64,000 nucleotides of DNA from an uncultured Clostridia bacterium (GCA_947632635.1 CANRQA010000002.1:5-64004); one strand, 5' to 3'. Numbered from the stretch's first letter, positions 36,825 through 54,403 are shown. Notes: generated by a model not told the origin, from the letters alone. Program-made: numbers and translations.

Positions 36825-37610
36825 TTATTTTAAATTTATCTGATTAAATGGCTTAAAATTACCTAATGTGTCAATTCTACCTTTTACTGTTATTTTTATT
36901 TCCACTTCTGCGTAATTACCTTTAAAATCGTTAGCTTCTACATATATGAAGTCAGTTATTTCTTTGCCGCTTTTATCAATAAAGCCCCATTTGTTGTGAA
37001 GCTTTACTTTAGCAAACCCATTTACGAAATCTGAAGCGTCATCATATTTAATAGCAGTAATTTCTCTACCATTAGTATCCAAAAAGCCCCATTTTTTGTT
37101 AAGTTTTACTTTAGCAAATCCATTTACAAAATTTGAAACATCATCATATTTAATAGGGATAACTTCTTTACCATTAGTATCTATAATCCCAAATTTATCT
37201 TTAATATTTACTATAGCAAATCCATTTTCAAAATCATAAACATAATCATATGTAATAGGAGAGATTTCCTTTCCTTTGGTATTTATAAAACCAAATTTTC
37301 TATCAAGCATTACTATAGCAAAACCATTTTTAAAGTTATAAGCAAAATTATATTTAATAGGGGTAATTTCTTTGCAATTAGAATTTATAAAACCATATTT
37401 ATTGTTAATCTCCACTACAGCGAACCCGTTTTCAAAAAAACAAATTTCATCATATTTAATAGGAGTTACTTCTTCGACCATAGTATTAATAAAGCCGTAT
37501 TTCCCTTTTTTCCGTACTATAGCCAAATTCTCATTAACAAACCAAATAAGAGTATATCCTTTTTTACACATTTTTTCTACATTTTCATTTACAAAGCCAC
37601 TTTTAGTCAT
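36825..37610 (-). CDS. WG-repeat (PF14903/KWG-type) protein, 6 repeats
   Basis: 261 aa. Six units of ..NGFA.V..N.K(W/Y)GFI(D/N).(T/S)GKEI(T/S)PIKYD... Conserved N-terminus MTKSGFVNENVEKMCKKGY. No signal peptide. Confidence 0.85.
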   Translation of the reverse strand: MTKSGFVNENVEKMCKKGYTLIWFVNENLAIVRKKGKYGFINTMVEEVTPIKYDEICFFENGFAVVEINNKYGFINSNCKEITPIKYNFAYNFKNGFAIVMLDRKFGFINTKGKEISPITYDYVYDFENGFAIVNIKDKFGIIDTNGKEVIPIKYDDVSNFVNGFAKVKLNKKWGFLDTNGREITAIKYDDASDFVNGFAKVKLHNKWGFIDKSGKEITDFIYVEANDFKGNYAEVEIKITVKGRIDTLGNFKPFNQINLK

Positions 37611-37665
37611 GTCTTTTAGTTCCTCCTTTAAAATTATTTAAATGAATAATTTATTAATTTACTAG

Positions 37666-37694
37666 ATTATATCATCGTATTAGCCATAATGCAA
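37666..37694 (-). promoter_or_regulatory. WG cassette promoter
   Basis: Minus strand TTGCAT-17-TGaTATAAT. Confidence 0.6.
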
Positions 37695-37780
37695 GGTTTG
37701 TAAAACTTTTTTAAAATAAATATATGAGCTTTTTACAATTTTTTAGAATTAAATAACCTTGAGTATTAAAATATATAAAA

Positions 37781-37812
37781 AAGGATAATAAGCGGTTAAA
37801 CTTATTATCCTT
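37781..37812 (-). terminator. WG cassette terminator T2
   Basis: Identical hairpin. Confidence 0.8.
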
Positions 37813-37837
37813 TAAAAAAGAAAAATATTTTGTTATT

Positions 37838-38704
37838 TTAATTTAGTGGAGTAAAATTACCTAATTTGTCAATTTTACCTGTAACACTTATTTTAACTTT
37901 TGCATATTCATTTTCAAAATCGTTAGCTTCTATATATGTGAAATCAGTTATCTCATTACCACTTTCATCAATGAAGCCCCAGCAACCATTAAGTTTTGCT
38001 TTTGCAAACCCATTTATAAAATCACCAATATAATCATATTTTATAGGAGTAATTTTTTTCTCAGTAGTATCAATAACGCCCCATTTCCCATTAAGCTTTA
38101 CTTTAGCAAGCCCATTTATGAAACTTGAAACATCATCATATATAATGGAAGTAATTTCTTTGCTAGTAGTGTCAATAAAACCCCATTTGTCGTTAATGCA
38201 TACCGTAGCAAAACCGTCTTTAAAATCACAAACAAAATCATACTTTATTTCAGTAATTTCTTTGCCAGTAGTGTCAATAAAGCCCCATTTACTGTTGAGG
38301 TCAACTCTAGCAAATCCATTTTTAAAATTCCAAACTAAATCATATTTTATTTCAGTAATTTCTTTACCAGTAGTATCAATAAAACCCCATTTCTTGTTAA
38401 TGCATACTATGGCGAATCCGTTTTCAAAAGACCAAAAAACATCATATTTTATTTTTGTAATTTCTTTACCAGTAGTGTCAATAAGGCCGTATTTATTTTT
38501 AATTTTTACTATAGAAAAACCATTTTCAAAATCTGAAACACTATCATATTTAATAGGAGTTACTTCTTCGACCATAGTATTAATAAAGCCGTATTTCCCT
38601 TTTTTCCGTACTATAGCCAAATCTTCATTAGCAAACCCAATAAGAGCATATCCTTTTTTACACATCTTTTCTGCATTTTCATTTACAAAGTCATTTCTAG
38701 TCAT
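37838..38704 (-). CDS. WG-repeat protein, 7 repeats
   Basis: 288 aa. N-terminus MTRNDFVNENAEKMCKKGY; C-terminus GKIDKLGNFTPLN. Confidence 0.85.
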   Translation of the reverse strand: MTRNDFVNENAEKMCKKGYALIGFANEDLAIVRKKGKYGFINTMVEEVTPIKYDSVSDFENGFSIVKIKNKYGLIDTTGKEITKIKYDVFWSFENGFAIVCINKKWGFIDTTGKEITEIKYDLVWNFKNGFARVDLNSKWGFIDTTGKEITEIKYDFVCDFKDGFATVCINDKWGFIDTTSKEITSIIYDDVSSFINGLAKVKLNGKWGVIDTTEKKITPIKYDYIGDFINGFAKAKLNGCWGFIDESGNEITDFTYIEANDFENEYAKVKISVTGKIDKLGNFTPLN

Positions 38705-38759
38705 GTTTTTAAATCCTCCTTTAAAATTATTTAAATGAATAATTTATTTAATTTACCAG

Positions 38760-38788
38760 ATTATATCATACGAGTTTTTACAAGTCAA
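38760..38788 (-). promoter_or_regulatory. WG cassette promoter (variant -35)
   Basis: Minus strand TTGACT-17-TATAAT. Confidence 0.55.
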
Positions 38789-38837
38789 TATTATTACAAG
38801 AATTAGTGTTTACTTTATAAGTACTTTGCGTATAAAA

Positions 38838-38869
38838 AAGGATAATAGGTAAGTACACCTACTATCCTT
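38838..38869 (-). terminator. WG cassette terminator T3 (variant stem)
   Basis: AAGGATAATAGG-N8-CCTACTATCCTT plus T-run on the minus strand. Confidence 0.7.
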
Positions 38870-38903
38870 TTTGTGTAAAAGCTAATTTTTTTGTTTTAAC
38901 TAA

Positions 38904-40313
38904 CTACATTATAAAAATAGGCAAGAACCTCCCATTAGCATCAATAATGCCGGGAAATGTTACTTTAGCAAAGCCATTTACAAAATTTTCTATACTACCT
39001 AATATTGTTGGAATAATTTCTTTACCACTTTCATTAATAAAGCCATATTTATTGTTAAGCATGACTTTAGCAAAGCCATTTACAAAATCAAAAATCCTAT
39101 CATATTTTATTTCGGTAATTTCCTTACCGTCAGTATTAATAAGGCCTAATTTCCCATCAATATTAACTCTAGCAAATCCATCTTTAAAATAATAAACATG
39201 ATCATATTTAAATTTAGTTATTTCTTTACCAGTTTCATCAATAAATCCCCACTTGTTGTTAAACTTTACCCCTGCAAAGCCATTTTCAAAATTGTTAACA
39301 TCATCATATATAATAGGAGTAATTTCGTTACCACTTTCATCAATAAAACCCCATTTATTATCAATACATACCCTTGCAAATCCATTTAAAAAAATATAAA
39401 CACCATCATACTTAATTTTAGTAATTTGCTTTCCTGTCGTATCAATAAAGCTAAATTTGTTATTAGCGCGTACTATAGCAAAACCATTTACAAAATCAAA
39501 AATCCTATCATATTTAATTTCAGTAATTTCTTTGCCTGAAGTATCAATAAGGCCCCATTTGTTATTAAGGCTTCCTTCAGCAAACCCATTTTTAAAATAA
39601 GTAACCTTATCATATTTAATAGGAGTAATTTCGTTACCATTAATATCAATAAGGCCCCATTTGTTGTTAATGCATACTTGTTGAGAGAATCCATTTCTAA
39701 AATACCACCAAAAATCATCATAATCATATTTAAATTCAGTTATTTTTTTACCGGTAGTATCAATAAAGCCCCATTTGCCATTAAGCCTAACTTTAATAAC
39801 CCCATATTTAAAAGTTATTCCAGCAATATCTTCGTATATAATTTTAGTTATTTCTTCACCTTTAGTATTAATAAAACCATATTTTTCATTAAGCATTACC
39901 CATGCAATCTCACATTCAAAATTGCCAACGCACTCATATATAATAGGAGTAATTTCCTTGCCACTTTCATCAATAAAGCCCCATTTATCATCAATACATA
40001 CCCTTGCAAATCCATTTTCGAAATCGTAAACATCATCATACTTTATTTCAGTAATCTCGTTGCCATTAGTATCAATAAAACCGTATTTGACATCGCCGTT
40101 ATTGTTATAAATATTTACTCTAGCAAAACCGTTTTCAAAATTCCAAGTATCATTATACTTTATTTCAGTAATCTCGTTACCATTAGTATCAATAAAGCCG
40201 TATTTACCATTAATTTTTACTATAGCAAATCCATTTACAAAGTTACCAATAAAATGATATTTTTGTTTACAAACCTTTTCTACATTTTCGCTTACAAAGC
40301 CATTTCTAGTCAT
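38904..40313 (-). CDS. WG-repeat protein, 12 repeats
   Basis: 469 aa; the C-terminus differs from the family consensus (..GIIDANGRFLPIFIM). Confidence 0.85.
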   Translation of the reverse strand: MTRNGFVSENVEKVCKQKYHFIGNFVNGFAIVKINGKYGFIDTNGNEITEIKYNDTWNFENGFARVNIYNNNGDVKYGFIDTNGNEITEIKYDDVYDFENGFARVCIDDKWGFIDESGKEITPIIYECVGNFECEIAWVMLNEKYGFINTKGEEITKIIYEDIAGITFKYGVIKVRLNGKWGFIDTTGKKITEFKYDYDDFWWYFRNGFSQQVCINNKWGLIDINGNEITPIKYDKVTYFKNGFAEGSLNNKWGLIDTSGKEITEIKYDRIFDFVNGFAIVRANNKFSFIDTTGKQITKIKYDGVYIFLNGFARVCIDNKWGFIDESGNEITPIIYDDVNNFENGFAGVKFNNKWGFIDETGKEITKFKYDHVYYFKDGFARVNIDGKLGLINTDGKEITEIKYDRIFDFVNGFAKVMLNNKYGFINESGKEIIPTILGSIENFVNGFAKVTFPGIIDANGRFLPIFIM

Positions 40314-40369
40314 GTTTTTAAATCCTCCTTTAAAATTATTTAAATGAATAATTTATTTAAATTTACTAG

Positions 40370-40398
40370 ATTATATCATCGTATTAGTTATAATGCAA
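40370..40398 (-). promoter_or_regulatory. WG cassette promoter
   Basis: TTGCAT-17-TGaTATAAT on the minus strand. Confidence 0.6.
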
Positions 40399-40484
40399 GC
40401 TTTATAGCAGTTTTTTAATAAATATATATGAGCTTTTTGCAATTTTTTATAATTAAATAACCTTAAGTATTAAAATATATAAAA

Positions 40485-40516
40485 AAGGATAATAAGTGGT
40501 TAAACTTATTATCCTT
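40485..40516 (-). terminator. WG cassette terminator T4
   Basis: AAGGATAATAAG-TGGTTAAA-CTTATTATCCTT. Confidence 0.8.
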
Positions 40517-40538
40517 TAAAGAAAATTATTTTTTTATT

Positions 40539-41759
40539 TTAATTTAGTGGCGTAAAATTGCCTAATTTGTCAATTCTACCTTTAATACTTATTTCCACTT
40601 CTGCATATTCATTTTCAAAATCGTTAGCTTCTATATATGTGAAATCAGTTATCTCTTTACCATTAGTATCAATAAAGCCCCATCTGCCATTAAGTTTTGC
40701 TTTAGCAAAACCATTTTCGAAATTTGAGACCTCATCATATTTAATTTCAGTTATTTCCTTACCACTTTTATCAATAAAGCACCATCTGCCATTAAGTTTT
40801 GCTTTAGCAAAACCATTTACGAAATTTGAAAGCTCATCATATTTAATTTCAGTTATCTCATTACCACTAGCATTAATAAATCCACATTTATTTTTAAGTT
40901 TTACTATAGCAAATCCATTTTTAAAATCCCAAACCAAATTATATTTAATTTCAGTTATCTCGTTGCCATTGCTATCAATGAAGCCACATTTATTATCAAT
41001 ACATACCCTTGCAAATCCATTTTCAAAGTCCCAAATATAACCATATTTAATAGGAGTAATGTTATTATCGTAAATATCAATAAGGCCCCATTTGTTCTTA
41101 AGACATATTCTAGCAATTCCGTCTTGAAAATTAGAAACCTCATCATATTTAAATTTAATTATATTGTTGCCATTAGTGTCGATAAATCCCCATTTATGAT
41201 TATGATTAGCACATACCATAGCAAATCCGTTTTCAAAATCATGAGCATTAATATATTCAATTTTAGTAATCTTTTTACCAGTAGTATCAATAAAACCATA
41301 TTTGGTATCAACGCCGCCGTATTTGCCATTAATTGCTACTATAGCAAAACCGTTTTTAAAATCCCAAGCACCAGTATACTTTATTTCAGTAATCTCTTTA
41401 CCAGTAGTATCAATAAAACCATGTTTGGCATCAATGCCTCCGTATTTGCCATTAATTTCTACTCTAGCAAATCCATTTTTAAACTCATGAACATAATCAT
41501 ATTTGATTTCAGTTATCTCGTTGCCATTAGTATCAATAAAGCCACATTTGCCATTAAGTTTGACTATAGCAAAGCCATTTACAAAATCACAAACGTAATC
41601 ATATTTAATATCTGTTATTTCCTTACCACTTTCGTCAATAAAGCCCCATTTACCATTAAGTTTGACTCGAGCAAATCCATTTACAAAGTTACCAATATAA
41701 AAATATTTCCTTTCACACAATCTTTCTACATTTTCGTTTACAAAGCCACTTTCAGTCAT
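40539..41759 (-). CDS. WG-repeat protein, 10 repeats
   Basis: 406 aa. N-terminus MTESGFVNENVERLCERKY; C-terminus GRIDKLGNFTPLN. Confidence 0.85.
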   Translation of the reverse strand: MTESGFVNENVERLCERKYFYIGNFVNGFARVKLNGKWGFIDESGKEITDIKYDYVCDFVNGFAIVKLNGKCGFIDTNGNEITEIKYDYVHEFKNGFARVEINGKYGGIDAKHGFIDTTGKEITEIKYTGAWDFKNGFAIVAINGKYGGVDTKYGFIDTTGKKITKIEYINAHDFENGFAMVCANHNHKWGFIDTNGNNIIKFKYDEVSNFQDGIARICLKNKWGLIDIYDNNITPIKYGYIWDFENGFARVCIDNKCGFIDSNGNEITEIKYNLVWDFKNGFAIVKLKNKCGFINASGNEITEIKYDELSNFVNGFAKAKLNGRWCFIDKSGKEITEIKYDEVSNFENGFAKAKLNGRWGFIDTNGKEITDFTYIEANDFENEYAEVEISIKGRIDKLGNFTPLN

Positions 41760-41814
41760 GTTTTAAATCCTCCTTTAAAATTATTTATTAGATTTAAGTA
41801 AATTAATTTACTAG

Positions 41815-41843
41815 ATTATATCATTGTATTAGCCAAAATGCAA
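41815..41843 (-). promoter_or_regulatory. WG cassette promoter
   Basis: TTGCAT-17-TGaTATAAT on the minus strand. Confidence 0.6.
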
Positions 41844-41928
41844 GGCTTGTAGAGTTTTTTTATAAATATATATGTGCTTTTTGCAATTTCTTAAAATTAA
41901 ATAACCTTGAGTATTAAAATATATAAAA

Positions 41929-41960
41929 AAGGATAATAAGCGGTTAAACTTATTATCCTT
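41929..41960 (-). terminator. WG cassette terminator T5
   Basis: Identical hairpin. Confidence 0.8.
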
Positions 41961-41983
41961 TAAAGAAAATTATTTTTGTTATT

Positions 41984-42850
41984 TTAATTTAGTGGTGTAA
42001 AGTTACCTAATGTATCAATTTTACCTTTAACTTCTATTGTTACTTCAGCATATCCATTTGCAAAATTATAAGCTCTATCATATTTAGGTGGAACAATTTC
42101 CTTACCACTTTCATCAATAAAGCCGTAGTTACCATTAGTTTTTACCTTAGCAAAACCATTTACAAAGTCAAAAACCTTATCATAAATAATAGGAGTAATT
42201 TCCTTACCACTTTTATCAATAAAGCTCCATTTGTTATTAAGGCATACCATAGCAAACCCGTCAGCAAAATTACAAACCTCATCATACTTTATTTCAGTAA
42301 TTTCTTTGCCAGTAGTATCAATAAAACCGAATTTGCTGTTAATGTATACTCTAGCAAATCCATTTTTAAAATTCCAAGCATCATCATATTTTATTTCAGT
42401 AATTTCTTTGCTAGTAGTGTCAATAAAGCCGTATTTGCCGTTAATGTATACTCTAGCAAAACCGTTTTTAAAATCCCAAACATTATCATATTTTATTTCA
42501 GTAATCTCTTTGCCAGTAGTGTCAATAAAGCCGTATTTGCCATTAATTTTTACTCTAGCAAAACCATTTATAAAATCCCAAACATTATCATATTTTATTT
42601 CAGTTATCTCTTTTCCGGTAATATCGATAAAGCCCCACTTGTCATTAATGCATACCCCGGCAAAACCTTTTTTAAAATTATAAGCAAAATTATATTTAAT
42701 ATTTGATATTTCCTTACCATTTTTATCAATGAAACCCCATTTTCCATAAACAAATACTCTAGCAAATCCATCGTAAAAAATATCAATATACTTATAATTA
42801 TCTTTACACATTCTTTCTACATTTTCGTTTACAAATCCACTTTCAGTCAT
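41984..42850 (-). CDS. WG-repeat protein, 7 repeats
   Basis: 288 aa. N-terminus MTESGFVNENVERMCKDNY; C-terminus GKIDTLGNFTPLN. Confidence 0.85.
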   Translation of the reverse strand: MTESGFVNENVERMCKDNYKYIDIFYDGFARVFVYGKWGFIDKNGKEISNIKYNFAYNFKKGFAGVCINDKWGFIDITGKEITEIKYDNVWDFINGFARVKINGKYGFIDTTGKEITEIKYDNVWDFKNGFARVYINGKYGFIDTTSKEITEIKYDDAWNFKNGFARVYINSKFGFIDTTGKEITEIKYDEVCNFADGFAMVCLNNKWSFIDKSGKEITPIIYDKVFDFVNGFAKVKTNGNYGFIDESGKEIVPPKYDRAYNFANGYAEVTIEVKGKIDTLGNFTPLN

Positions 42851-42906
42851 GTTTTTAAATCCTCCTTTAAAATTATTTATTAGATTTAAGTAATTTAATT
42901 TACTAG

Positions 42907-42935
42907 ATTATATCATTGTATTAGCCAAAATGCAA
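42907..42935 (-). promoter_or_regulatory. WG cassette promoter
   Basis: TTGCAT-17-TGaTATAAT on the minus strand. Confidence 0.6.
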
Positions 42936-43022
42936 GGATTGTAGCGCTTTTTTATAAATATATATGTGCTTTTTGCAATTTTTTTAAAATTAAATAACCT
43001 TTAGTATTAAAATATATAAAAA

Positions 43023-43054
43023 AAGGATAATAAGCGGTTAAACTTATTATCCTT
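43023..43054 (-). terminator. WG cassette terminator T6
   Basis: Identical hairpin. Confidence 0.8.
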
Positions 43055-43102
43055 AAAAAAAGAGAATTATTTTTACATTTTAATTTAGTGGTGTAAAATT
43101 AT

Positions 43103-43726
43103 CTAATTTGTCAATTCTACGGAAGTGGATAATGGAAGGAACATGGAAGGCGTAAAGTTGCCTAATGTATCAATTCTACCTTTAACTTTTACTATTACTT
43201 CAGCATATCCATTTGAAAAATTATCGGCACTATAATATTTAGGTGGAATAATTTCCTTACCACTTTCATCAATAAAGCCGTATTTACCATTATTTTTTAC
43301 TATAGCAAAACCATTTGCAAAGTCAAAAACCGTATCATAAATAATAGGAGTAATTTCCTTACCACTTTCATTAATGAACCCCCATTTGCCATTAAGCATG
43401 ACTTTAGCAAAACGGTTTTTAAAGTTACAAACAGAATCATACTTTATTTCAGTTATCTCTTTTCCGGTAGTATCAATAAAACCGTAATTTTCGTTAATTT
43501 TTACTATAGCAAAATTATTTTCAAAATTCCAAGCATAATCATACTTTATTTCAGTTATCTCGTTGCCATTAGTATCAATAAACCCCCATTTTCCAACAAA
43601 GCTAGATCTGCCGCATTTGTCACATATTTTTACCGTAGAAAAACCATTTTCAAAACCGCAAATAAAATCATATTTTTTGTTACACCTTTTTTCTACAATT
43701 TCGTTTACAAAGCCATTTCTAGTCAT
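43103..43726 (-). CDS. WG-repeat protein, 4 repeats, with rearranged 3' end
   Basis: 207 aa. After GRIDTLGNFTP the ORF runs into a 30-bp insert (SMFLPLSTS) and an out-of-frame second copy of the family 3' end. Confidence 0.8.
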   Translation of the reverse strand: MTRNGFVNEIVEKRCNKKYDFICGFENGFSTVKICDKCGRSSFVGKWGFIDTNGNEITEIKYDYAWNFENNFAIVKINENYGFIDTTGKEITEIKYDSVCNFKNRFAKVMLNGKWGFINESGKEITPIIYDTVFDFANGFAIVKNNGKYGFIDESGKEIIPPKYYSADNFSNGYAEVIVKVKGRIDTLGNFTPSMFLPLSTSVELTN

Positions 43727-43782
43727 TTTTTTAAATCCTCCTTTAAAATTATTTATTAGATTTTAGTAATTTAATTTACTAG

Positions 43783-46739: not shown

Positions 46740-49094
46740 ATGTTAAAACTAAACAATATATGTAAAAGTTTTAAAACAGCAGATTTTGTACAAAAAGCAC
46801 TAGATGATGTAAGCATTGAATTTAGGAAAAATGAATTTGTAGCAATACTTGGCCCAAGTGGTAGTGGTAAAACAACACTACTTAATATTATAGGTGGTCT
46901 TGACCATTATGACAGTGGTGATTTAGTTATAAACTCAAAATCAACTAAAGATTTTAAAGATAGAGATTGGGATGCATATAGAAACAACTGTATAGGCTTT
47001 GTATTTCAAAATTATAACCTAATATCTCATATTAGTATATTATCTAATGTAGAAATGTCTATGACTTTAAGTGGAGTAGGTGCTAAAGAAAGAAAAAAAC
47101 GTGCAATGGAGGCTTTAGAAAAAGTTGGACTTAAAGAACATATGAATAAAAAGCCAAATCAGCTATCAGGTGGGCAAATGCAAAGAGTTGCAATTGCAAG
47201 AGCACTTGTAAATAACCCTGATATAATAATGGCAGATGAACCAACCGGAGCACTTGATAGCAAAACTAGCGTACAAATAATGGAATTAATAAAAGAAATT
47301 GCAAAAGATAAATTAGTTATAATGGTAACACATAACCCTGAACTTGCAAAAGATTATGCTACAAGAATTGTAGAACTAAAAGATGGACACATAATTAGCG
47401 ATTCAAATCCAGTAAATGAAAAAGAAAGGGAAGAAAAGGAATATACTATTGGTAAAACTGCAATGAGCTTTTTCTCTGCTTTAAATCTATCTTTTAATAA
47501 TATAAAAACTAAAAAGGGAAGAACTTTTTTAACAGCCTTTGCATCAAGCATTGGTATTATTGGTATAGCAATAATATTAAGCCTTTCAAATGGCTTTCAG
47601 TTAAAAATTGATGAATATATAAAAGACACAATGGATCAATTTCCAATAATTATAACTGAATCAACAATGGAAGTTGACTCTGAAATGTTAGAAGAACAAC
47701 ATCAGGAGTTAACTGATATTATGCTTGGAAATGTTGAATATCCTGATACTCAAGAAGTGGCTTTGTATGATTCAAGTCTTGATACTATAACTCATACAAA
47801 TGTAATGTCTGATGAATACATTTCATATTTAGAGGCAGTTGATAAGGATGTATGTAGTAGTATTGGATATATAAATATAATATCTATGAATGCGATAAGA
47901 AAAACAGATGACAAAGTAGTACCTGTATCATTTGCAACAGGTGTAAACAATACAGTAAGTTATAGTACTAGTGGTATGACAAATATGTCTGTTACAACAT
48001 ATCCTAAAATGCTCGATGAAAATACAACATATTTAGAAGAATATTATGATATTTTATCAGGAGCATATCCTAAGTTACCAACAGAAGTAGTATTAGTTGT
48101 TGATAATAAAAATAGAATAGATGAAAAAGTTATGAAAGGTCTTGGCTTTGAAACAGAGGATATAGAAAGCATAAAATTTGAAGATATCATAGGAACAGAA
48201 ATGCAAATTGTATCAAACAATGATTTTTATGAAAAAGGCACATTTGGTAACTTTGTACCTAAAACAAACTATGACAGTTTATATGATTTAGAGAATAATA
48301 TAACAATAAAAATAGTTGGAATTGTACGTTCTAAAAAAGACGTAAAAATATCTTTACTTGCAGGTGGTATAGCATATAGTAATGAATTATCAAATATAGT
48401 TTATGAAAAAGCTAAAGATTCAGATATAGTAAAAGACCAAATGGACTCAAATCTTAATTTATTAACTATGCAGGAATTTAAAACAGATAAAGAAAAAGAC
48501 CAAATGATAGCTTATCTTGGTGGAAGTAAAGTACCAGTATCAGCTATAATTTATCCTACAACTTTTGAAAATAAAGAAAAACTTATAGAATATTTAGATG
48601 AATATAACGACGGAAAAGAAAAAGATGACAAAGTTGTTTATACTGATTTGTCTGAAACTATAACTACTATGACATCTGGTATTATGGACGCAATAACAAT
48701 TGTACTTATTGCATTTTCTGCAATTTCACTTGTAGTATCAACAATTATGATAGCAATTATTACTTATATTTCTGTACTTGAAAGAACAAAGGAAATAGGA
48801 ATATTAAGAGCACTAGGTGCAAGAAATAAAGATATTACTCGTGTATTTAATGCTGAAACATTTATAATAGGGTTATTTTCAGGCTTGATTGGTATTGTAG
48901 TAGCAGGTCTACTTACTATTCCTGCAAATAGTATACTACTAAAACTTACTGAACTTGAAAATGTTGCACAACTTAAAATTGAACATGCATTATTGCTTGT
49001 TACTATAAGTGTAATATTAACTTTAATTGGTGGCTTTATACCAGCAAAAATTGCTGCTAAAAAAGACCCTGTTGAAGCACTTAGAACAGAATAA
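46740..49094 (+). CDS. ABC transporter, fused ATP-binding and FtsX/MacB-type permease
   Basis: Walker A GPSGSGKTT, signature LSGGQMQR, Walker B IIMADEPT. Large extracytoplasmic domain and C-terminal FtsX-like TMs. Confidence 0.9.
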   Translation: MLKLNNICKSFKTADFVQKALDDVSIEFRKNEFVAILGPSGSGKTTLLNIIGGLDHYDSGDLVINSKSTKDFKDRDWDAYRNNCIGFVFQNYNLISHISILSNVEMSMTLSGVGAKERKKRAMEALEKVGLKEHMNKKPNQLSGGQMQRVAIARALVNNPDIIMADEPTGALDSKTSVQIMELIKEIAKDKLVIMVTHNPELAKDYATRIVELKDGHIISDSNPVNEKEREEKEYTIGKTAMSFFSALNLSFNNIKTKKGRTFLTAFASSIGIIGIAIILSLSNGFQLKIDEYIKDTMDQFPIIITESTMEVDSEMLEEQHQELTDIMLGNVEYPDTQEVALYDSSLDTITHTNVMSDEYISYLEAVDKDVCSSIGYINIISMNAIRKTDDKVVPVSFATGVNNTVSYSTSGMTNMSVTTYPKMLDENTTYLEEYYDILSGAYPKLPTEVVLVVDNKNRIDEKVMKGLGFETEDIESIKFEDIIGTEMQIVSNNDFYEKGTFGNFVPKTNYDSLYDLENNITIKIVGIVRSKKDVKISLLAGGIAYSNELSNIVYEKAKDSDIVKDQMDSNLNLLTMQEFKTDKEKDQMIAYLGGSKVPVSAIIYPTTFENKEKLIEYLDEYNDGKEKDDKVVYTDLSETITTMTSGIMDAITIVLIAFSAISLVVSTIMIAIITYISVLERTKEIGILRALGARNKDITRVFNAETFIIGLFSGLIGIVVAGLLTIPANSILLKLTELENVAQLKIEHALLLVTISVILTLIGGFIPAKIAAKKDPVEALRTE

Positions 49095-49135: not shown

Positions 49136-49387
49136 TTTAAGAGAAAATTAGGCTAACTACATAAAAAGTATATAGTTACTTATTTATATATTTTTAAAAA
49201 TTAGTTAGTCTGATGAACGTTTTGACGACGTCGGCTAGATGTTCAAACGCACTAATAATGCGAAAATTTGAAAGATTAAAGATTATATGCTAATTCGTTA
49301 TGTATGTTATTTAATAGTTCTAAATGTAGAAAAATGTCGAAAACTTATATAAAAAATATTACCATTTTTCTAGTAAACAAAACAGAA

Positions 49388-50206
49388 ATGGATTTTGAAA
49401 GTATTAAACATATTGATGAAAATGGTGTTGAATTTTGGTATGCTAGAGAACTAATGATTATGTTAGATTATAGCAAGTGGGGAAATTTTAAAAATGTAAT
49501 AATTAAAGCAAAAGATGCGTGTAAAGGTAGTAATATTGCACAAGATGAACACTTTGCCGACGTCAGGAGGGTGTTAAAAGTTGGCAATAATGCTGAAATG
49601 GAAGTAGATGATATAAAACTTACTAGATATGCTTGTTATTTAATTGCACAAAATGGAGATAGTAGAAAAAGAACTATTGCACTTGCTCAAACATATTTTG
49701 CAGTACAAACTAGAAAGCAAGAATTAACAAAAAGAGAATATGAAAGCCTAAATGAAGATGAAAAGCGATTATATACTAGAAAAAAAGTAAAAGATAAAAA
49801 CAAATATTTATTTGATACAGCAAAATTAGCAGGTGTAAGGAATTACGGAAAATTTAATAATTATGGCTATAGAGGACTATATAATGGAGAAACAGCAAAA
49901 GATATTGCAAATAGAAAAGGTATATCAGCAAATGAAGATATATTAGATTATATGAGTAGCACAGAACTTGCAGCAAATTTATTTAGAATTACACAAACAG
50001 ATGAAGTTTTAAAAAATAAGAATATAAATAATGAAAATGATGCTTGTAAAACTCATCATAATGTAGGACAAGCTGTTAGACAAACTATAAAAAGAATAGG
50101 TGGAACTATGCCAGAAGATTTACCAACACCAAGCAAAAGCGCAAAAGAAATTGAAAAAGAGAAGGAAATGCAGTTAAAAGATAATACTATAAATAAACTA
50201 AAATAA
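49388..50206 (+). CDS. dinD: DNA damage-inducible protein D (DinD-like)
   Basis: FESIKH.DENGVEFWYARELM..L.YSKW.NF..VI.KAK.AC, YACYLIAQNGD.RK. Start chosen at MDFES; the ORF track starts at 49304. Confidence 0.7.
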   Translation: MDFESIKHIDENGVEFWYARELMIMLDYSKWGNFKNVIIKAKDACKGSNIAQDEHFADVRRVLKVGNNAEMEVDDIKLTRYACYLIAQNGDSRKRTIALAQTYFAVQTRKQELTKREYESLNEDEKRLYTRKKVKDKNKYLFDTAKLAGVRNYGKFNNYGYRGLYNGETAKDIANRKGISANEDILDYMSSTELAANLFRITQTDEVLKNKNINNENDACKTHHNVGQAVRQTIKRIGGTMPEDLPTPSKSAKEIEKEKEMQLKDNTINKLK

Positions 50207-50297
50207 ATGAATAAAATATTTGTTATATAAAGTAAAACTTACAGTAAAAATTAAAAATAATGGAGAAATTGAAATGATTTAAGAGGCGATGTTGATA

Positions 50298-50783
50298 ATG
50301 AAAAAATTTTTTAAAAGAACTTTTTTTATTATTTTACTTTTTATAATTATATATATAATATACTTACATACACTTTATGATTATAATTTTTATTCTTCAC
50401 TAATTGAAACACCTATACCAATGTTTGCAAAGATGGAAGAAAAAGATACACATGGTGGTTTTCATGGAGATGGAGAAACACTTGTAAAAATATATTTTTC
50501 TAACAAACAGGCAGAAAGGTTTGTAAGCAAAATAGAAAACAATACACATTGGAACAAATCACCAATTGATGAAACATTAATGCCTTGTATAACCAATAAT
50601 AGTATAGAAGATATGTCTATACCATTTGTAGAAAAAGGATATTGGTTCTTTTTAGATAGATATAGTAAAGCAACAAATAAATATAATTATAATGATATGT
50701 TAAATAGAGCATCTTCAAATTATTCCATTGCTATATTTGATAGAGAATTTAATATACTTTATATTTATTCTTTAGATACATAA
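50298..50783 (+). CDS. Membrane-anchored hypothetical protein
   Basis: MKKFFKRTFFIILLFIIIYIIYL is an N-terminal TM; 161 aa. Confidence 0.5.
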   Translation: MKKFFKRTFFIILLFIIIYIIYLHTLYDYNFYSSLIETPIPMFAKMEEKDTHGGFHGDGETLVKIYFSNKQAERFVSKIENNTHWNKSPIDETLMPCITNNSIEDMSIPFVEKGYWFFLDRYSKATNKYNYNDMLNRASSNYSIAIFDREFNILYIYSLDT

Positions 50784-50952
50784 TTTATAAATAATAAAGA
50801 AGTTCTAAATTTTAACATCTAATAGCAACAATAAAACGTTACAAAATAAAAATTTTATTAAGACATTACAGCAATTAAGATAATCTATGAAAAGCTAATG
50901 AAGAAAAACTAACCGATTTACTTCCTAATTATTGTTAAAAAGCAAAAAATAC

Positions 50953-50981
50953 TTGACATAATTTAAAATGTGCTGTATAAT
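50953..50981 (+). promoter_or_regulatory. sigma-A promoter
   Basis: TTGACA-17-TATAAT, perfect consensus. Confidence 0.65.
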
Positions 50982-51030
50982 AGTTACATAATATATATAA
51001 AAATATATTATTAATATAAGATAATATAAT

Positions 51031-51393
51031 ATGAAAGGATGTTTTCTAATTATGAATGCTAAAGCAAAATTTTTAGACTTAGAATGGGTACCAGTCGAGG
51101 GATGTCACTTAATTCAAGGTGTAAAGGGAGGAAGGACACCACGGAATGCATTTGGTGGTAGCAATGGTACATTTATAGTACCTGATAATAATGCAGAACT
51201 TAATCTTGTAGTACGCGCAACTGACCAAAAAGTAATTACAAAAAATATTTATGGTATGGTAAAAAGTTTAGGAGTTGATAGAATAACTAAAACTTTTCGT
51301 GAAAAACTTGAAATGTCACTTCGCCATGAAAACTTTGAAGTCGAAAATGGCGAAATTATAAACCTTGATAACATACTTTTGAAAGTAATTTAA
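51031..51393 (+). CDS. Hypothetical soluble protein (start 51031 or 51052)
   Basis: 113-120 aa ORF, no motif recognised. Tightly followed by the next ORF. Confidence 0.5.
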   Translation: MKGCFLIMNAKAKFLDLEWVPVEGCHLIQGVKGGRTPRNAFGGSNGTFIVPDNNAELNLVVRATDQKVITKNIYGMVKSLGVDRITKTFREKLEMSLRHENFEVENGEIINLDNILLKVI

Positions 51394-51412
51394 AATATCA
51401 AAGGAGGTTATA

Positions 51413-51952
51413 ATGTTGGTACGGAGAATTGTAGGCGTTGTTTTATGTGTTATTAGTTTAATTTTTATTTTTATTGCATTTGAAATATCTTCTTCTTTTG
51501 TAGGATCAATTTGGTGGAATGCGTGTCATGAAGATATAACAGAAGAATACAATAGATATTTAGAAGTTAAAGATATAACAGATATAAACAAGTTATATGA
51601 GTATCTTGAAAAAAATAAAATTGACTATAAAATATCAGATAGAATTTTAAGTTTTGATGGATACTTATCAAATTATGAGGTAACTAGTACAGATAATAGT
51701 CAAGTTAAGGTAACTAATGAATTGTATGGTAAAATTGAACAAAGGCTAAAAACAAATAATGAAAATGACTATTCGGTTAGTTATAAAAAAGGCAAAAAGA
51801 TTATAACATATGAAAAAACTGAAGATATAGACCAACTAATAAAAATTGACAATAAGTATTATTATGGTGATACTGTAGAAAAAGTAAATAATATAATCTT
51901 CTTATGTTTTTTGATATTTTTTATTATGGGAATTATGTTAATTGGAGCATAA
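51413..51952 (+). CDS. Bitopic membrane protein, unknown function
   Basis: SD AAAGGAGG; N- and C-terminal TM segments. Confidence 0.55.
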   Translation: MLVRRIVGVVLCVISLIFIFIAFEISSSFVGSIWWNACHEDITEEYNRYLEVKDITDINKLYEYLEKNKIDYKISDRILSFDGYLSNYEVTSTDNSQVKVTNELYGKIEQRLKTNNENDYSVSYKKGKKIITYEKTEDIDQLIKIDNKYYYGDTVEKVNNIIFLCFLIFFIMGIMLIGA

Positions 51953-52203
51953 GTTAAAGAAATATATTCTAAATTTTAAAGGTAATCCTTTAAATTTAGG
52001 GTATATTTTTTTATACTTATGTTGAACTCCACATAATTGTACAATAGGAAAGTTACGAAAAAATATGTAAACTAATATAAAACTGGGATTTTTGTGTTAA
52101 ATTTTATAGACATTTAAAATTACCTATGTAGTTCGGGCATTTAATTTTTAATTCAACCTAAACCATATATATTCAAATAGCATAACATAAATTTACATAA
52201 AAC

Positions 52204-52232
52204 TTGACGCTACAGAGGAAATATGATATAAT
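52204..52232 (+). promoter_or_regulatory. Small-TM cassette 1 promoter
   Basis: TTGACG-17-TGaTATAAT. The ORF ATG begins 5 nt after the -10. Confidence 0.65.
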
Positions 52233-52236
52233 ATAA

Positions 52237-52461
52237 ATGTATGAAAAGTATTTTGATAAAAAAATTTTTATCAGGAAGGCGGTTGTTATTGTGACTAATT
52301 TTTTACTTATGTGGCTTCTTGCAGTTTCGGTGGCGACACTTACCTATAGTGGCTATCAGTGGAATGTAAGTAATAAAAATGAGAGAGAAAAATTCGTTCC
52401 GCTTATTTGTTTTGGCATAGCAATGAGTGTGCTGACAATATTTTTGTTTTTCTCGATTTAA
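52237..52461 (+). CDS. Small two-TM protein, cassette 1 (alt. GTG start 52291)
   Basis: 74 aa. Conserved MYEKYFDKKIFIRK, then variable hydrophobic segments. In-frame GTG behind AGGAAGG. Confidence 0.55.
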   Translation: MYEKYFDKKIFIRKAVVIVTNFLLMWLLAVSVATLTYSGYQWNVSNKNEREKFVPLICFGIAMSVLTIFLFFSI

Positions 52462-52464
52462 AAA

Positions 52465-52505
52465 AATAGCCTGTAGCTTAACTAAAGTTGCAGGCTATTT
52501 TTTCT
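52465..52505. terminator. Cassette 1 bidirectional terminator
   Basis: AAAAAA-AATAGCCTG..CAGGCTATT-TTTTT. Confidence 0.8.
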
Positions 52506-52627
52506 ATATATACTTAAATTTATTTATAACATAAAAAAATGACCTTTTTGGGGCATTTTCAAAAGTTATTACTTAAGACATTATTATAGGTTAATTATAA
52601 ATAGTACAATATAAATTTACATAAAAC

Positions 52628-52656
52628 TTGACATTACAGAGGAAATATGATATAAT
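52628..52656 (+). promoter_or_regulatory. Small-TM cassette 2 promoter
   Basis: TTGACA-17-TGaTATAAT. Confidence 0.7.
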
Positions 52657-52660
52657 ATAA

Positions 52661-52921
52661 ATGTATGAAAAGTATTTTGATAAAAAAATTTTTATCAGGA
52701 AGGAGATTATTATTGTGACCATTCTTTTACTTGCGTTGAATCTTTTGTGGTTGGTTGTACTAGGGTTGATTTTTCTTGGTTTGTTGGCATCAGTTATTTT
52801 CTGCATCTATGTGTTGATAACAAGTGGCCCAGATAAACGTGGAGATATTATTGCGGTTATTTATGTGGGCATAATATTAATTTTGATAACACTTTGTTTA
52901 ATGATAGGAACTTTAATTTAA
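52661..52921 (+). CDS. Small two-TM protein, cassette 2 (alt. GTG start 52715)
   Basis: 86 aa. Same leader; loop SGPDKRG; GTG 8 nt behind AGGAAGGAG. Confidence 0.55.
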   Translation: MYEKYFDKKIFIRKEIIIVTILLLALNLLWLVVLGLIFLGLLASVIFCIYVLITSGPDKRGDIIAVIYVGIILILITLCLMIGTLI

Positions 52922-52924
52922 AAA

Positions 52925-52965
52925 AATAGCCTGTAGCTTAACTAAAGTTGCAGGCTATTTTTTCT
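52925..52965. terminator. Cassette 2 bidirectional terminator
   Basis: Same hairpin as cassette 1. Confidence 0.8.
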
Positions 52966-53087
52966 ATATATACTTAAACTTATTTGTAACATAAAAAAAT
53001 GACCTTTTCGGGACATTTTCAAAAGTTATTACTTAAGACATTATCATAAATTAATCATAAATAGTACAATATAAATTTACATAAAAT

Positions 53088-53116
53088 TTGACATTACAGA
53101 GGAAATATGATATAAT
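53088..53116 (+). promoter_or_regulatory. Small-TM cassette 3 promoter
   Basis: TTGACA-17-TGaTATAAT. The ORF-track TTG start at 53088 is actually the -35 hexamer. Confidence 0.7.
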
Positions 53117-53120
53117 ACAA

Positions 53121-53348
53121 ATGTATAAAAAGTATTTTGATAAAAAAATTTTTATCAGGAAGGCGGTTGTTACTGTGATTAATTTTTTACTTGCTTTGCT
53201 TCTTCTGGATTTGTTGGGAATACTTGCTTGCAGCATTTATATGTTGATAAGAAGTACCAAAGATGAATGTAAAGATATTATTATATCTATTGGTTTGAAC
53301 ATAATATTAACTATGATAATAGTATTTTATTTCATTAAGAGGTCTTAA
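53121..53348 (+). CDS. Small two-TM protein, cassette 3 (alt. GTG start 53175)
   Basis: 75 aa from ATG 53121. A fossil of the family 3' end (ATAAGGATGTTAATTTAA) lies just after its stop. Confidence 0.55.
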   Translation: MYKKYFDKKIFIRKAVVTVINFLLALLLLDLLGILACSIYMLIRSTKDECKDIIISIGLNIILTMIIVFYFIKRS

Positions 53349-53371
53349 TAATAAGGATGTTAATTTAAAAA

Positions 53372-53411
53372 AATAGCTTGTAGCTTAACTAAAGTTGCAG
53401 GCTATTTTTTC
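53372..53411. terminator. Cassette 3 bidirectional terminator
   Basis: AATAGCTTG..CAGGCTATT with flanking A- and T-runs. Confidence 0.8.
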
Positions 53412-53534
53412 TATATATACTTAAACTTATTTGTAACATAAAAAAATGACCTTTTTGGGGCATTTTCAAAAGTTATTACTTAAGACATTATTATAGGTTA
53501 ATCATAAATAGTACAATATAAATTTACATAAAAC

Positions 53535-53563
53535 TTGACATTACAGAGGAAATATGATATAAT
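53535..53563 (+). promoter_or_regulatory. Small-TM cassette 4 promoter
   Basis: TTGACA-17-TGaTATAAT. Confidence 0.7.
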
Positions 53564-53567
53564 ATAA

Positions 53568-53798
53568 ATGTATGAAAAGTATTTTGATAAAAAAATTTTT
53601 ATCAGGAAGGAGATTATTATTGTGATTAATTTTTTACTTGCGCTGATTTTTCCGGTTTTTTTGATGACATTTATTTACTGCCTTCATATGGTGATAACAA
53701 GTGGCCCAGATGAACGAGGAGTTCTTATTCCGCTTATTTGTTTGGGCATAATATTAACTGTTATAGCATTTTGTTTAATGATAAGGATTTTAATTTAA
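53568..53798 (+). CDS. Small two-TM protein, cassette 4 (alt. GTG start 53622)
   Basis: 76 aa. The 3' half is identical to cassette 5 (DERGVLIPLICLGIILTVIAFCLMIRILI). Confidence 0.55.
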   Translation: MYEKYFDKKIFIRKEIIIVINFLLALIFPVFLMTFIYCLHMVITSGPDERGVLIPLICLGIILTVIAFCLMIRILI

Positions 53799-53802
53799 AA
53801 AA

Positions 53803-53842
53803 AATAGTCTGTAGCTTAACTAAAGTTACAGGCTATTTTTTC
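53803..53842. terminator. Cassette 4 bidirectional terminator
   Basis: AATAGTCTG..CAGGCTATT with flanking A- and T-runs. Confidence 0.8.
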
Positions 53843-53965
53843 TATATATACTTAAACTTATTTGTAACATAAAAAAATGACCTTTTCGGGACATTTTCAA
53901 AAGTTATTACTTAAGACATTATTATAGGTTAATCATAAATAGTACAACATAAATTTACATAAAAC

Positions 53966-53994
53966 TTGACATTACAGAGGAAATATGATATAAT
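53966..53994 (+). promoter_or_regulatory. Small-TM cassette 5 promoter
   Basis: TTGACA-17-TGaTATAAT. Confidence 0.7.
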
Positions 53995-53998
53995 ATAA

Positions 53999-54229
53999 AT
54001 GTATAAAAAATATTTTGATAAAAAAATTTTTATCAGGAAGGCGGTTGTTATTGTGATCATTTGTTTATTTGCGTTGATTTGTGTGGGTTTGTTGTCACCA
54101 GTTATTTACAGTATTTATATGTTAACAGCAAGAGACACAGATGAACGAGGAGTTCTTATTCCGCTTATTTGTTTGGGCATAATATTAACTGTTATAGCAT
54201 TTTGTTTAATGATAAGGATTTTAATTTAA
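53999..54229 (+). CDS. Small two-TM protein, cassette 5 (alt. GTG start 54053)
   Basis: 76 aa; divergent TM1, with TM2 identical to cassette 4. Confidence 0.55.
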   Translation: MYKKYFDKKIFIRKAVVIVIICLFALICVGLLSPVIYSIYMLTARDTDERGVLIPLICLGIILTVIAFCLMIRILI

Positions 54230-54233
54230 AAAA

Positions 54234-54273
54234 AATAGTCTGTAGCTTAACTAAAGTTACAGGCTATTTTTTC
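54234..54273. terminator. Cassette 5 bidirectional terminator
   Basis: Same hairpin as cassette 4. Confidence 0.8.
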
Positions 54274-54403
54274 TATATATACTTAAACTTATTTGTAACA
54301 TAAAAAAATGACCTTTTGATTATTTTTAGATTTTCTATCTTTTAATTGTATTTTTGAGCATAATATGATATAATTTATCCAAGTTAGAAAGTTTGGTGTA
54401 CAT

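Follow-up and report, generated by a model that had tools for sequence, protein, structure and literature searches.

Why should a run of small genes keep its promoters, leaders, terminators and spacers almost unchanged while the proteins encoded between them differ strongly? This question is raised by a tandem array of five cassettes for tiny membrane proteins in an uncultured, low-GC, gut-type Clostridia bacterium (GCA_947632635.1), which we analysed within a 64,000-nucleotide stretch of one contig (CANRQA010000002.1:5-64004), hereafter the window, from whose first letter all positions are counted. In bacterial genomes, annotation is poorest for small membrane proteins, and the array is a compact case in which expression signals are frozen and the module from start to stop codon is free to change and recombine. 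Tandem cassettes of small hydrophobic proteins are a kind already known; it is the evolutionary signature of this array that is unusual. As detailed below, these cassettes make up a genuine family of small membrane proteins, statistically robust and so far unannotated.

The array consists of five head-to-tail units on the + strand (52175-54317), with homology that starts about 30 nt upstream of the first -35 element and ends 45 nt past the fifth terminator. Tandem Repeats Finder assigns it a period of 431 (score 2204), and the ATG-to-ATG spacings of 424, 460, 447 and 431 nt listed by a first-pass annotation, which was made from the sequence alone, are correct. That annotation had also described a reversal of the usual pattern, with conserved flanks around variable coding bodies, and this is strongly upheld by alignment. 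Pairwise identity between units is 88-100% in the promoter, 91-100% in the leader and 95-100% in the terminator and the sequence just after it, and 58-85% in the body of the coding sequence (CDS). Among units 2-5, variation affects 118 of 216 columns in the CDS but 21 of 277 in non-coding sequence (Fisher p = 9e-32); adding unit 1 gives 151/216 versus 21/181 (p = 8e-34). Whether viewed in 20-column bins or in a dot alignment, variability begins at the Shine-Dalgarno (SD) sequence and GTG and ends at the stop codon, and CDS divergence among units 2-5 is 5-10 times that of the adjacent spacer. The four inter-unit spacers (52504-52627, 52964-53087, 53411-53534 and 53842-53965, followed by a truncated copy at 54273-54317), across which two haplotypes, TTTGGGGC and TTCGGGAC, are found, are 94-98% identical. 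Near-identity had been claimed for the spacers of all units; it holds for these four but not for the sequence upstream of unit 1, which is only about 60% like them.

Each unit opens with a promoter of the form TTGAC(A/G)-17-TGATATAAT with a TG extension. In unit 1 (52204-52232, +) this is TTGACG-17-TATAAT and scores 11/12, while the other four score 12/12: unit 2 (52628-52656, TTGACA-17-TATAAT, likewise with the TG extension), unit 3 (53088-53116), unit 4 (53535-53563) and unit 5 (53966-53994), all on the + strand. Scanning the 64-kb window with the regular expression TTGACR-N14-TGNTANAAT gave five matches, all in the array, so that the consensus extended -10 promoters proposed earlier for each unit are the only five full-consensus matches in the window; matches of 9/12 by our promoter scorer are at background level (27 found, 23.7 expected). 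The promoter is followed by an AU-rich leader of about 50 nt, with a predicted hairpin of -7.2 to -8.6 kcal/mol and homopolymer tracts (A7T5) that are the same in all five units. In unit 1 this leader, a probable 5' untranslated region (UTR), spans 52239-52290 (+) and contains a near-palindrome, TGATAAAAAAATTTTTATCA, at 52254-52273 (AU hairpin), and then the SD sequence AAGGCGGU 8 nt before a GTG; its equivalents in units 2-5 lie at 52663-52714, 53123-53174, 53570-53621 and 54001-54052 (+). At the end of each of the five units stands an A-run/hairpin/T-run terminator with a 19-bp hairpin (z = -7.5 to -8.1). The copy in unit 1 (52461-52503, +) comprises A7, the 19-bp stem, a 5-nt loop and T6, and the others are at 52921-52963, 53368-53410, 53799-53841 and 54230-54272 (+). 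The first-pass annotation had called these terminators bidirectional. Their layout is as described in every unit, but two-way action is not favoured, the element being asymmetric and clearly better on the + strand: predicted folding energies are -24.5/-21.8 kcal/mol on the + strand versus -17.9/-16.7 on the minus strand (5-7 better on +), and wobble or variant positions form G-U pairs in the + strand RNA and A-C mismatches on the minus strand. An Rfam scan of the array gave only sub-threshold "Thr_leader" matches, which are the terminators themselves.

Other readings of the leader region were tried. The sequence TGATAA-N8-TTATCA, which is found nowhere else in the window, might conceivably be a Fur-box-like site. 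Two further readings were rejected. A short upstream open reading frame (ORF; AUG AAA AGU ... UGA, overlapping the GUG) loses its AUG to AUA in units 3 and 5. On the minus strand, all units have an open frame of 56-71 codons over leader and promoter; it lacks a start codon in units 1 and 4, however, and is probably no gene. We note that minus-strand open stretches at 52591-52806, 53051-53236 and 53929-54060 share a conserved ...FLIKIFLSKYF.YI.IISYFLC.VKFYVNL... translation.

Several features indicate that the variable bodies are read in the proposed frame, which is the only one free of stops in all five units; the other five frames carry 1-14 stops each. For a shuffled body, the chance of an open frame is 0.006-0.015 per unit, and T occupies 46-61% of second codon positions. 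Insertions and deletions amount to 6 nt in unit 1 and 30 nt in unit 2, both in frame, while unit 3 has a 17-nt insertion that supplies its own stop, beyond which a fossil of the family 3' end is preserved (53349-53367), as had been noticed previously. Counted from the GTG, the CDSs would encode 56 aa in unit 1 (52291-52461; 74 aa from the ATG at 52237), 68 aa in unit 2 (52715-52921, with the 30-nt insertion in the first transmembrane (TM) segment), 57 aa in unit 3 (53175-53348), and 58 aa each in unit 4 (53622-53798) and unit 5 (54053-54229, with the same 3' half as unit 4), all on the + strand.

Two start codons had been offered for these proteins, an ATG read from a leaderless mRNA or an in-frame GTG behind AGGAAGG(A/C)G, and both are where they were said to be, the A of the ATG being the fifth nucleotide after the -10 element. 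The GTG is the better supported of the two. At the end of the leader stands AAGGAGAU or AAGGCGGU, both of which agree with AAGGAGGU at 7 of 8 positions, and the SD core GGAG or GGCGG ends 9 and 8 nt, respectively, before the GTG, a spacing like that of the other genes of the window. The same nucleotides read as codons would be minor ones in this genome (shares within their synonymous families: AGG 15%, AAG 16%, GAG 17.5% and GCG 3%). Moreover, the supposed first 18 codons are conserved at the level of the promoter, unlike a protein, and six of their seven variable sites would be non-synonymous if translated. Since the SD lies 8-9 nt from the GTG, its codons are rare, the ATG is only 5 nt past the -10 element and the leader is as conserved as the promoter, and in view of the limits of variability, we favour the GTG: with good confidence, as judged from sequence, translation starts there and the conserved stretch of 18 codons before it most likely belongs to the 5' UTR.

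According to the alternative, transcription would start at the A of the ATG and yield a leaderless message for a 74-86-aa protein with a conserved, positively charged 18-residue N-terminal tail, MY(E/K)KYFDKKIFIRK.., which might serve all five proteins for anchoring or for binding a partner, or might be a leader peptide preceding a hypervariable core; such a start would be compatible with any functional reading. The ATG frame does run on into the GTG frame in all five units, and the ATG was chosen by the gene caller behind the European Nucleotide Archive (ENA) records, but the chance openness of 18 codons is not small. The net charge of the tail (+2 to +5) is in line with the positive-inside rule for a hairpin with its N terminus inside, and the first helix of the AlphaFold2 model extends through it. 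For transcription to begin at this A, however, it would have to do so 5 nt from the -10 element, which is an atypically short distance, and AGG-AAG-GAG/GCG, rare as codons, matches AAGGAGGU at 7/8 positions and is ideally spaced from the GTG. Modification enzymes and a dedicated peptidase transporter were not found nearby. Together with the promoter-like conservation of the leader, these points make a long leaderless isoform improbable.

In outline, each cassette would be transcribed constitutively from its consensus extended -10, sigma-A-type promoter, with the 5' end of the transcript probably at a G or A 7-9 nt past the -10 element, within or just beyond the "ATG". An AU-rich 5' UTR of about 50 nt with a weak hairpin would then lead to translation from the GTG, 8-9 nt behind a strong SD, and transcription would end at the strong intrinsic terminator. 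We therefore regard it as very probable from these sequence features that the array is composed of five autonomous, strongly signalled monocistronic cassettes for two-helix membrane hairpins of 56-68 aa.

What do these cassettes encode? Measured from the GTG, the products have 56-68 aa, a grand average of hydropathy of 0.9-2.2 and two hydrophobic segments with a short polar turn between them; the ATG-initiated ORFs of 74, 86, 75, 76 and 76 aa likewise agree with the earlier description of 74-86-aa proteins with two hydrophobic segments. AlphaFold2 models a helical hairpin (helices 2-44 and 47-75) with a mean predicted local distance difference test score of 77.6, and the product is predicted to lie in the membrane as a hairpin whose two helices are joined by a short polar turn. 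The C-termini are hydrophobic (...LMIRILI, ...LMIGTLI and ...LFFSI). The GTG-initiated proteins are 36-67% identical to that of unit 4 and only three residues are invariant among all five. An SGPD(K/E)RG loop, which had been reported for three copies, is present in two (units 2 and 4), the corresponding sequence in unit 5 being RDTDERG. Hairpin architecture and polar turn are nevertheless kept, despite amino-acid divergence of 33-64%.

The units are mosaics. Units 2 and 4 have no difference in 92 positions of promoter and leader and three in 126 of the spacer, and differ at 20/82 and 16/87 positions of the two CDS halves (18-24%), in addition to the 30-nt indel. Between units 4 and 5 there are 26 differences in the 82 positions of the 5' half of the CDS and none in 152 positions of its 3' half plus the terminator (0/87 and 0/65, respectively); the identical 3' halves had been recognised in the first-pass annotation, whereas the 5' halves, there called unrelated, are 68% identical. 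Leader and spacer haplotypes alternate (unit 2 equals unit 4, unit 3 is close to unit 5), which suggests duplication of a two-unit block. Unit 1 is an outlier, whose upstream spacer and CDS are diverged alike (39-42% and 38-44%) and whose promoter, leader and terminator are only 2-7% diverged. The units probably originated by tandem duplication, with unit 1 as the old outlier. Their flanks would have been held alike by recent duplication or gene conversion together with functional constraint on expression signals, and the coding modules, from start to stop codon, would have been kept different by selection and reshuffled by recombination. A diversity-generating retroelement target was considered and rejected: the spectrum of substitutions is mixed, with transitions about as frequent as transversions and no adenine bias, although no search was aimed at a reverse transcriptase across the window.

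Is selection needed to account for this pattern? By the Nei-Gojobori method, dN/dS is 0.87-1.18 for unit 1 against the others and 1.33-2.63 among units 2-5, and variable sites fall at codon positions 1, 2 and 3 in the ratio 43/33/30, position 1 being highest. The earlier proposal of diversifying selection plus recombination is thus borne out as far as mosaicism and a dN/dS at or above 1 are concerned, but selection and relaxed constraint are not separable on these values. A neutral explanation holds that the cassettes are evolutionary froth, i.e. recently amplified, lineage-specific hydrophobic ORFs under weak or no constraint at the protein level, perhaps without important function and without diversifying selection; the flanks would be alike by recent duplication and gene conversion, and heteroduplex rejection would halt conversion tracts at the diverged bodies. 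It gains from the dN/dS of about 1 in comparisons with unit 1 and from the fact that the CDS divergence of this unit matches that of its unconstrained upstream spacer. At 26.6% GC, T-rich hydrophobic ORFs are easily generated, no relatives of the protein were found, and the identical 3' block of units 4 and 5 means that conversion does enter the CDS. This explanation sits badly, however, with frames that are open in all five units, for which the joint chance is roughly 1e-10 if units are taken as independent, which paralogues are not, with the indels in multiples of three in units 1 and 2, and with a two-helix architecture and polar turn that outlast such protein divergence. Nor would it predict, among units 2-5, a CDS several times more divergent than the spacer and bounded by start and stop codons, or the upkeep of five full-consensus promoters, strong SDs and terminators, the old copy in unit 1 included. 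We consider it rather unlikely that the cassettes are neutral throughout.

Another family in the window has a similar appearance. A run of WG_beta_rep (PF14903) paralogues with 102-nt internal repeats occupies 36825-43747 on the minus strand, and four of these (starts at 38704, 40313, 42850 and 43726; minus strand) have a near-identical TTGCAT-17-TGATATAAT promoter, 5' UTR, ribosome-binding site and first 60 nt or so of the CDS, after which they diverge. Since the WG-repeat paralogues share the flank-conserved pattern, that of the array is somewhat less singular, which is also in keeping with the neutral explanation. That the pattern recurs speaks for a mechanism of general reach, which would be gene conversion at 5' ends or else strong selection on expression signals.

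Arrays of near-identical blocks invite the question of whether the assembly is sound. In particular, one or two cassettes might have existed in several allelic forms among co-existing strains, and the assembler might have joined these forms into a five-unit array. Conserved blocks of about 280 nt exceed typical k-mer sizes, and short-read contigs of other samples do break within them. A contig from a separate data set (ENA ERZ27249050, sample L001) nonetheless matches 52530-54314 with seven mismatches, has units 2-5 in the same order and is identical in every CDS. All seven differences fall on dimorphic spacer sites (TTTGGGGC versus TTCGGGAC and two others) and none in a CDS; the single spacer haplotype throughout this contig suggests bubble collapsing, and unit 4 was left uncalled as a gene there. 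In a third sample (L015) unit 1 is present, with one W-to-R change in the loop. Against an artefact, terminator-spacer-promoter junctions prove at least a tandem arrangement, the units differ in length, their flank haplotypes are linked and the window contig continues through the array into unique genes on either side. Taken together, these findings make a misassembly very unlikely.

No relatives of the array were found. Scans of all five proteins with Pfam, NCBIfam, PHROGs and PADLOC gave only sub-threshold compositional matches far below gathering cut-offs (the best PHROGs match, for unit 1 only, has E = 0.011). Only the array's own products came back when 5.8 billion proteins were searched with a profile and 1.84 billion representatives exhaustively with HMMER; a PDB sequence search gave no match, and Foldseek searches of the AlphaFold2 hairpin against BFVD and PDB were uninformative (E>1). 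At the nucleotide level, GTDB species genomes, JGI metagenomes and IMG/VR were scanned with a leader 25-mer, a terminator 23-mer and back-translated leader peptides, and phage and plasmid collections with blastn; the sole match, of 29 nt, is one of chance. The first-pass annotation could assign no family, and this agrees with our family, sequence and fold searches, none of which matched a characterised family. In the genomes nearest by FtsY (78%, 69% and 66% identity; the first two are an uncultured "Clostridium sp." metagenome-assembled genome and Clostridium sp. CAG:1219), there is no array upstream of ftsY. The scarcity of relatives may in part be a sampling effect, the lineage being poorly sampled.

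What might the proteins do? Morons are units with their own promoter and terminator, and one of them, HK97 gp15, encodes a small inner-membrane exclusion protein (PMC3594210). By analogy, the five paralogues might form a constitutive repertoire of membrane-embedded specificity proteins, each acting as an immunity or exclusion factor against a different variant of a membrane threat (phage DNA entry, lysis proteins or membrane-targeting toxins), and the array would in effect be a chromosomal series of moron-like cassettes. The Imm protein of T4 is a similar case to HK97 gp15. We put this reading forward tentatively, as the most economical one but somewhat short of an even chance. Small inner-membrane moron proteins and mosaic bacteriocin/immunity regions provide precedents. 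In its favour we also count the strong promoters, SDs and terminators, the single open frame, the predicted hairpin, the diversity and mosaicism of the bodies, and the possible gene conversion between spacers. To these come the neighbouring phage-defence candidate and membrane proteins without known relatives, and the lack of the array before ftsY in related genomes. A bolder version, which we think improbable, is a hard-wired diversity repertoire, i.e. a previously unrecognised class of bacterial membrane "specificity cassettes". In this version gene conversion would keep the chassis of promoter, leader, terminator and spacer homogeneous, and the chassis would serve as homology arms for swapping start-to-stop modules; selection would keep the TM-hairpin modules distinct, each recognising another membrane-inserting phage or toxin variant, which would amount to an innate-immunity-like allelic series within one genome.

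Several observations weigh against an immunity or exclusion repertoire. The proteins have no sequence or fold homology to exclusion or immunity proteins in Pfam, NCBIfam, PHROGs, PADLOC, PDB or BFVD. The non-synonymous excess is significant for comparisons with unit 3 only (p = 0.013-0.044, uncorrected), and an omega of 1-2 from five recombining paralogues fits relaxed constraint plus homogenisation of the flanks too. The frozen 5' ends of the WG-repeat paralogues suggest that such ends may be a general habit of this genome. The seven spacer differences of sample L001 reflect either gene conversion between spacers or bubble collapsing by the assembler. Since the array comes from a single lineage, with near-identical copies in other samples and essentially no change among the few samples at hand, an arms race is not demonstrable. 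Finally, the array lies outside any recognisable prophage and is not distinct in GC, and a Bro-N gene is its sole phage-related neighbour.

Membrane-active toxins are another possible role, suggested by the first-pass annotation. Type I toxins are hallmarked by fewer than 60-70 aa, one TM helix, a C-terminal cluster of polar, charged or aromatic residues, tandem duplication with similarity beyond the CDS and an antitoxin small RNA (sRNA), and known type I loci are suggested to be under purifying selection (Fozo et al. 2010, PMC2887945). If the array were of a type I toxin-antitoxin-like kind, its cassettes would code for small hydrophobic peptides that damage the membrane, possibly as abortive-infection effectors; an sRNA, antisense or divergent, or a repressor bound to the leader palindrome would restrain their synthesis. 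The hydrophobic ORFs of 56-68 aa, their tandem duplication in one intergenic region with similarity reaching past the CDS, the own promoter and terminator of each and the very narrow taxonomic range all agree with this; besides, a conserved near-palindrome stands directly before the SD, and an A-run/T-run terminator could in principle serve convergent transcripts. However, where one TM helix and a polar, charged or aromatic tail would be expected, the proteins have two TM helices and a hydrophobic C-terminus. Purifying selection is not seen either, omega being at or above 1, and the wobble pairs of the terminators favour the + strand only. On the antitoxin side, the best minus-strand promoter in the units (5/6+4/6 with an 18-nt spacer and without TG) is missing from one or two of them, RNA structure of the spacer on both strands is no better than in shuffles (z = -0.08 to +0.82), and spacer-leader duplex energies do not exceed those of shuffled controls. 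Predicted mRNA folds leave most of the SD accessible, with only its first AGG drawn into the weak AU hairpin of the leader (-7 to -9 kcal/mol). A long-range pairing that would consistently sequester the SD was rejected: AGGCGG-CCGCUU exists in unit 1, but in other units the SD variant is not accompanied by a matching change in the partner. With antisense promoter, structured spacer RNA and leader complementarity all looked for in the sequence and not found, the toxin-like role is without sequence support, and we regard a type I system as possible but doubtful.

The array is embedded in the order era, recO, a 303-aa ORF, an ABC-ATPase/FtsX fusion, a small island, the array itself, ftsY and murB. 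The 303-aa ORF has no family match. The fusion (46740-49094, +) combines an ABC ATPase and an FtsX-type permease in one MacB-like 784-aa polypeptide (ABC_tran + FtsX only), and its link to the array is possible. The island starts with a 300-aa Bro-N domain protein (49304-50206, +), 2 kb upstream of the array, which matches the PADLOC candidate PDC-S13 (E = 1.9e-106) and phrog_8036 (E = 2e-96); by this match it is a phage-defence candidate, which we treat as context to the array. Three ORFs without family match follow (50289-51952, +), encoding 164 aa with an N-terminal TM helix, 113/120 aa, and 179 aa with N- and C-terminal TM helices. For the 113-aa and 179-aa products, a search among 5.8 billion proteins gave no relatives; in the 164-aa ORF, five single-nucleotide polymorphisms between L015 and the window are clustered within 82 nt (50580-50661). 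A foreign origin by composition was rejected, GC being uniform at 24-28% across the locus. A double-glycine bacteriocin precursor was not found in 50150-52250, nor was a C39 exporter, the ABC protein having the ABC_tran and FtsX domains.

Elsewhere in the window, about 900 nt after ruvC are free of genes and, at 60200-60900, visibly richer in G+C than the 26.6% genome. This stretch contains a 38-nt hairpin unit (GAGCGG...CCGCTC) repeated in tandem 3.6 times (60423-60558), as well as a segment of about 50 nt duplicated at about 60347-60402 and 60693-60745, with no Rfam match at gathering score in 60200-60900; it could be an unclassified structured RNA or an element like the repetitive extragenic palindromes. 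A 609-aa ORF at 69-1898, with about 15 copies of a 78-nt coding repeat (393-1602, +), is probably a repeat-containing surface protein.

A signature like that of the array is expected for molecules that take part in conflicts, for example in the exclusion of phages, immunity to toxins or kin discrimination. Should the cassettes prove to give specific resistance, their products would form a new family of defence or immunity proteins of very small size, and the array would provide a natural plug-and-play expression chassis. Should they be toxins, type I-like systems would be extended to two-helix peptides that have no obvious antisense RNA.

How, then, does the array compare with known systems? 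It resembles the tandem type I loci ldr/rdl, ibs/sib, zorO-zorP and fst (PMC2887945) in its short hydrophobic ORFs of less than 70 aa, arranged in tandem in one intergenic region, in similarity that extends past the CDS, in separate transcription units and in a very narrow phylogenetic range. It differs from them by two TM helices, the lack of a polar or charged C-terminal cluster, an SD that is not sequestered, and no detected sRNA gene or complementarity; the CDS is its least conserved part, whereas it is the most conserved part there. With HK97 gp15-type morons (PMC3594210), the array shares the promoter-ORF-terminator unit, a tiny membrane protein and adjoining phage-related or defence-candidate genes. 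In contrast to them, it lies outside a prophage, shows no GC deviation, comprises five diversified tandem copies instead of one and matches neither gp15/YebO nor any PHROG in sequence or fold. The pneumococcal blp bacteriocin immunity region, which contains a variable number of small genes for putative membrane immunity proteins, is similar in its small putative membrane proteins, in conserved 5' elements with variable bodies and in hybrid genes and recombination blocks (PMC4517551). The array differs in having no double-glycine precursors, BlpR-type boxes or C39-peptidase ABC exporter, and each of its cassettes is monocistronic with its own terminator. The vlp and vsp families of Mycoplasma, in a low-GC, Bacillota-related genome, are likewise tandem paralogues with conserved promoter, 5' UTR and 5' end and divergent bodies; they encode lipoproteins with signal peptide and internal repeats, and their promoters are phase-variable. 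Although the array has no lipobox and no repeats, and its A7T5 tracts are constant, it has in common with these families the combination of conserved 5' modules and divergent tandem bodies.

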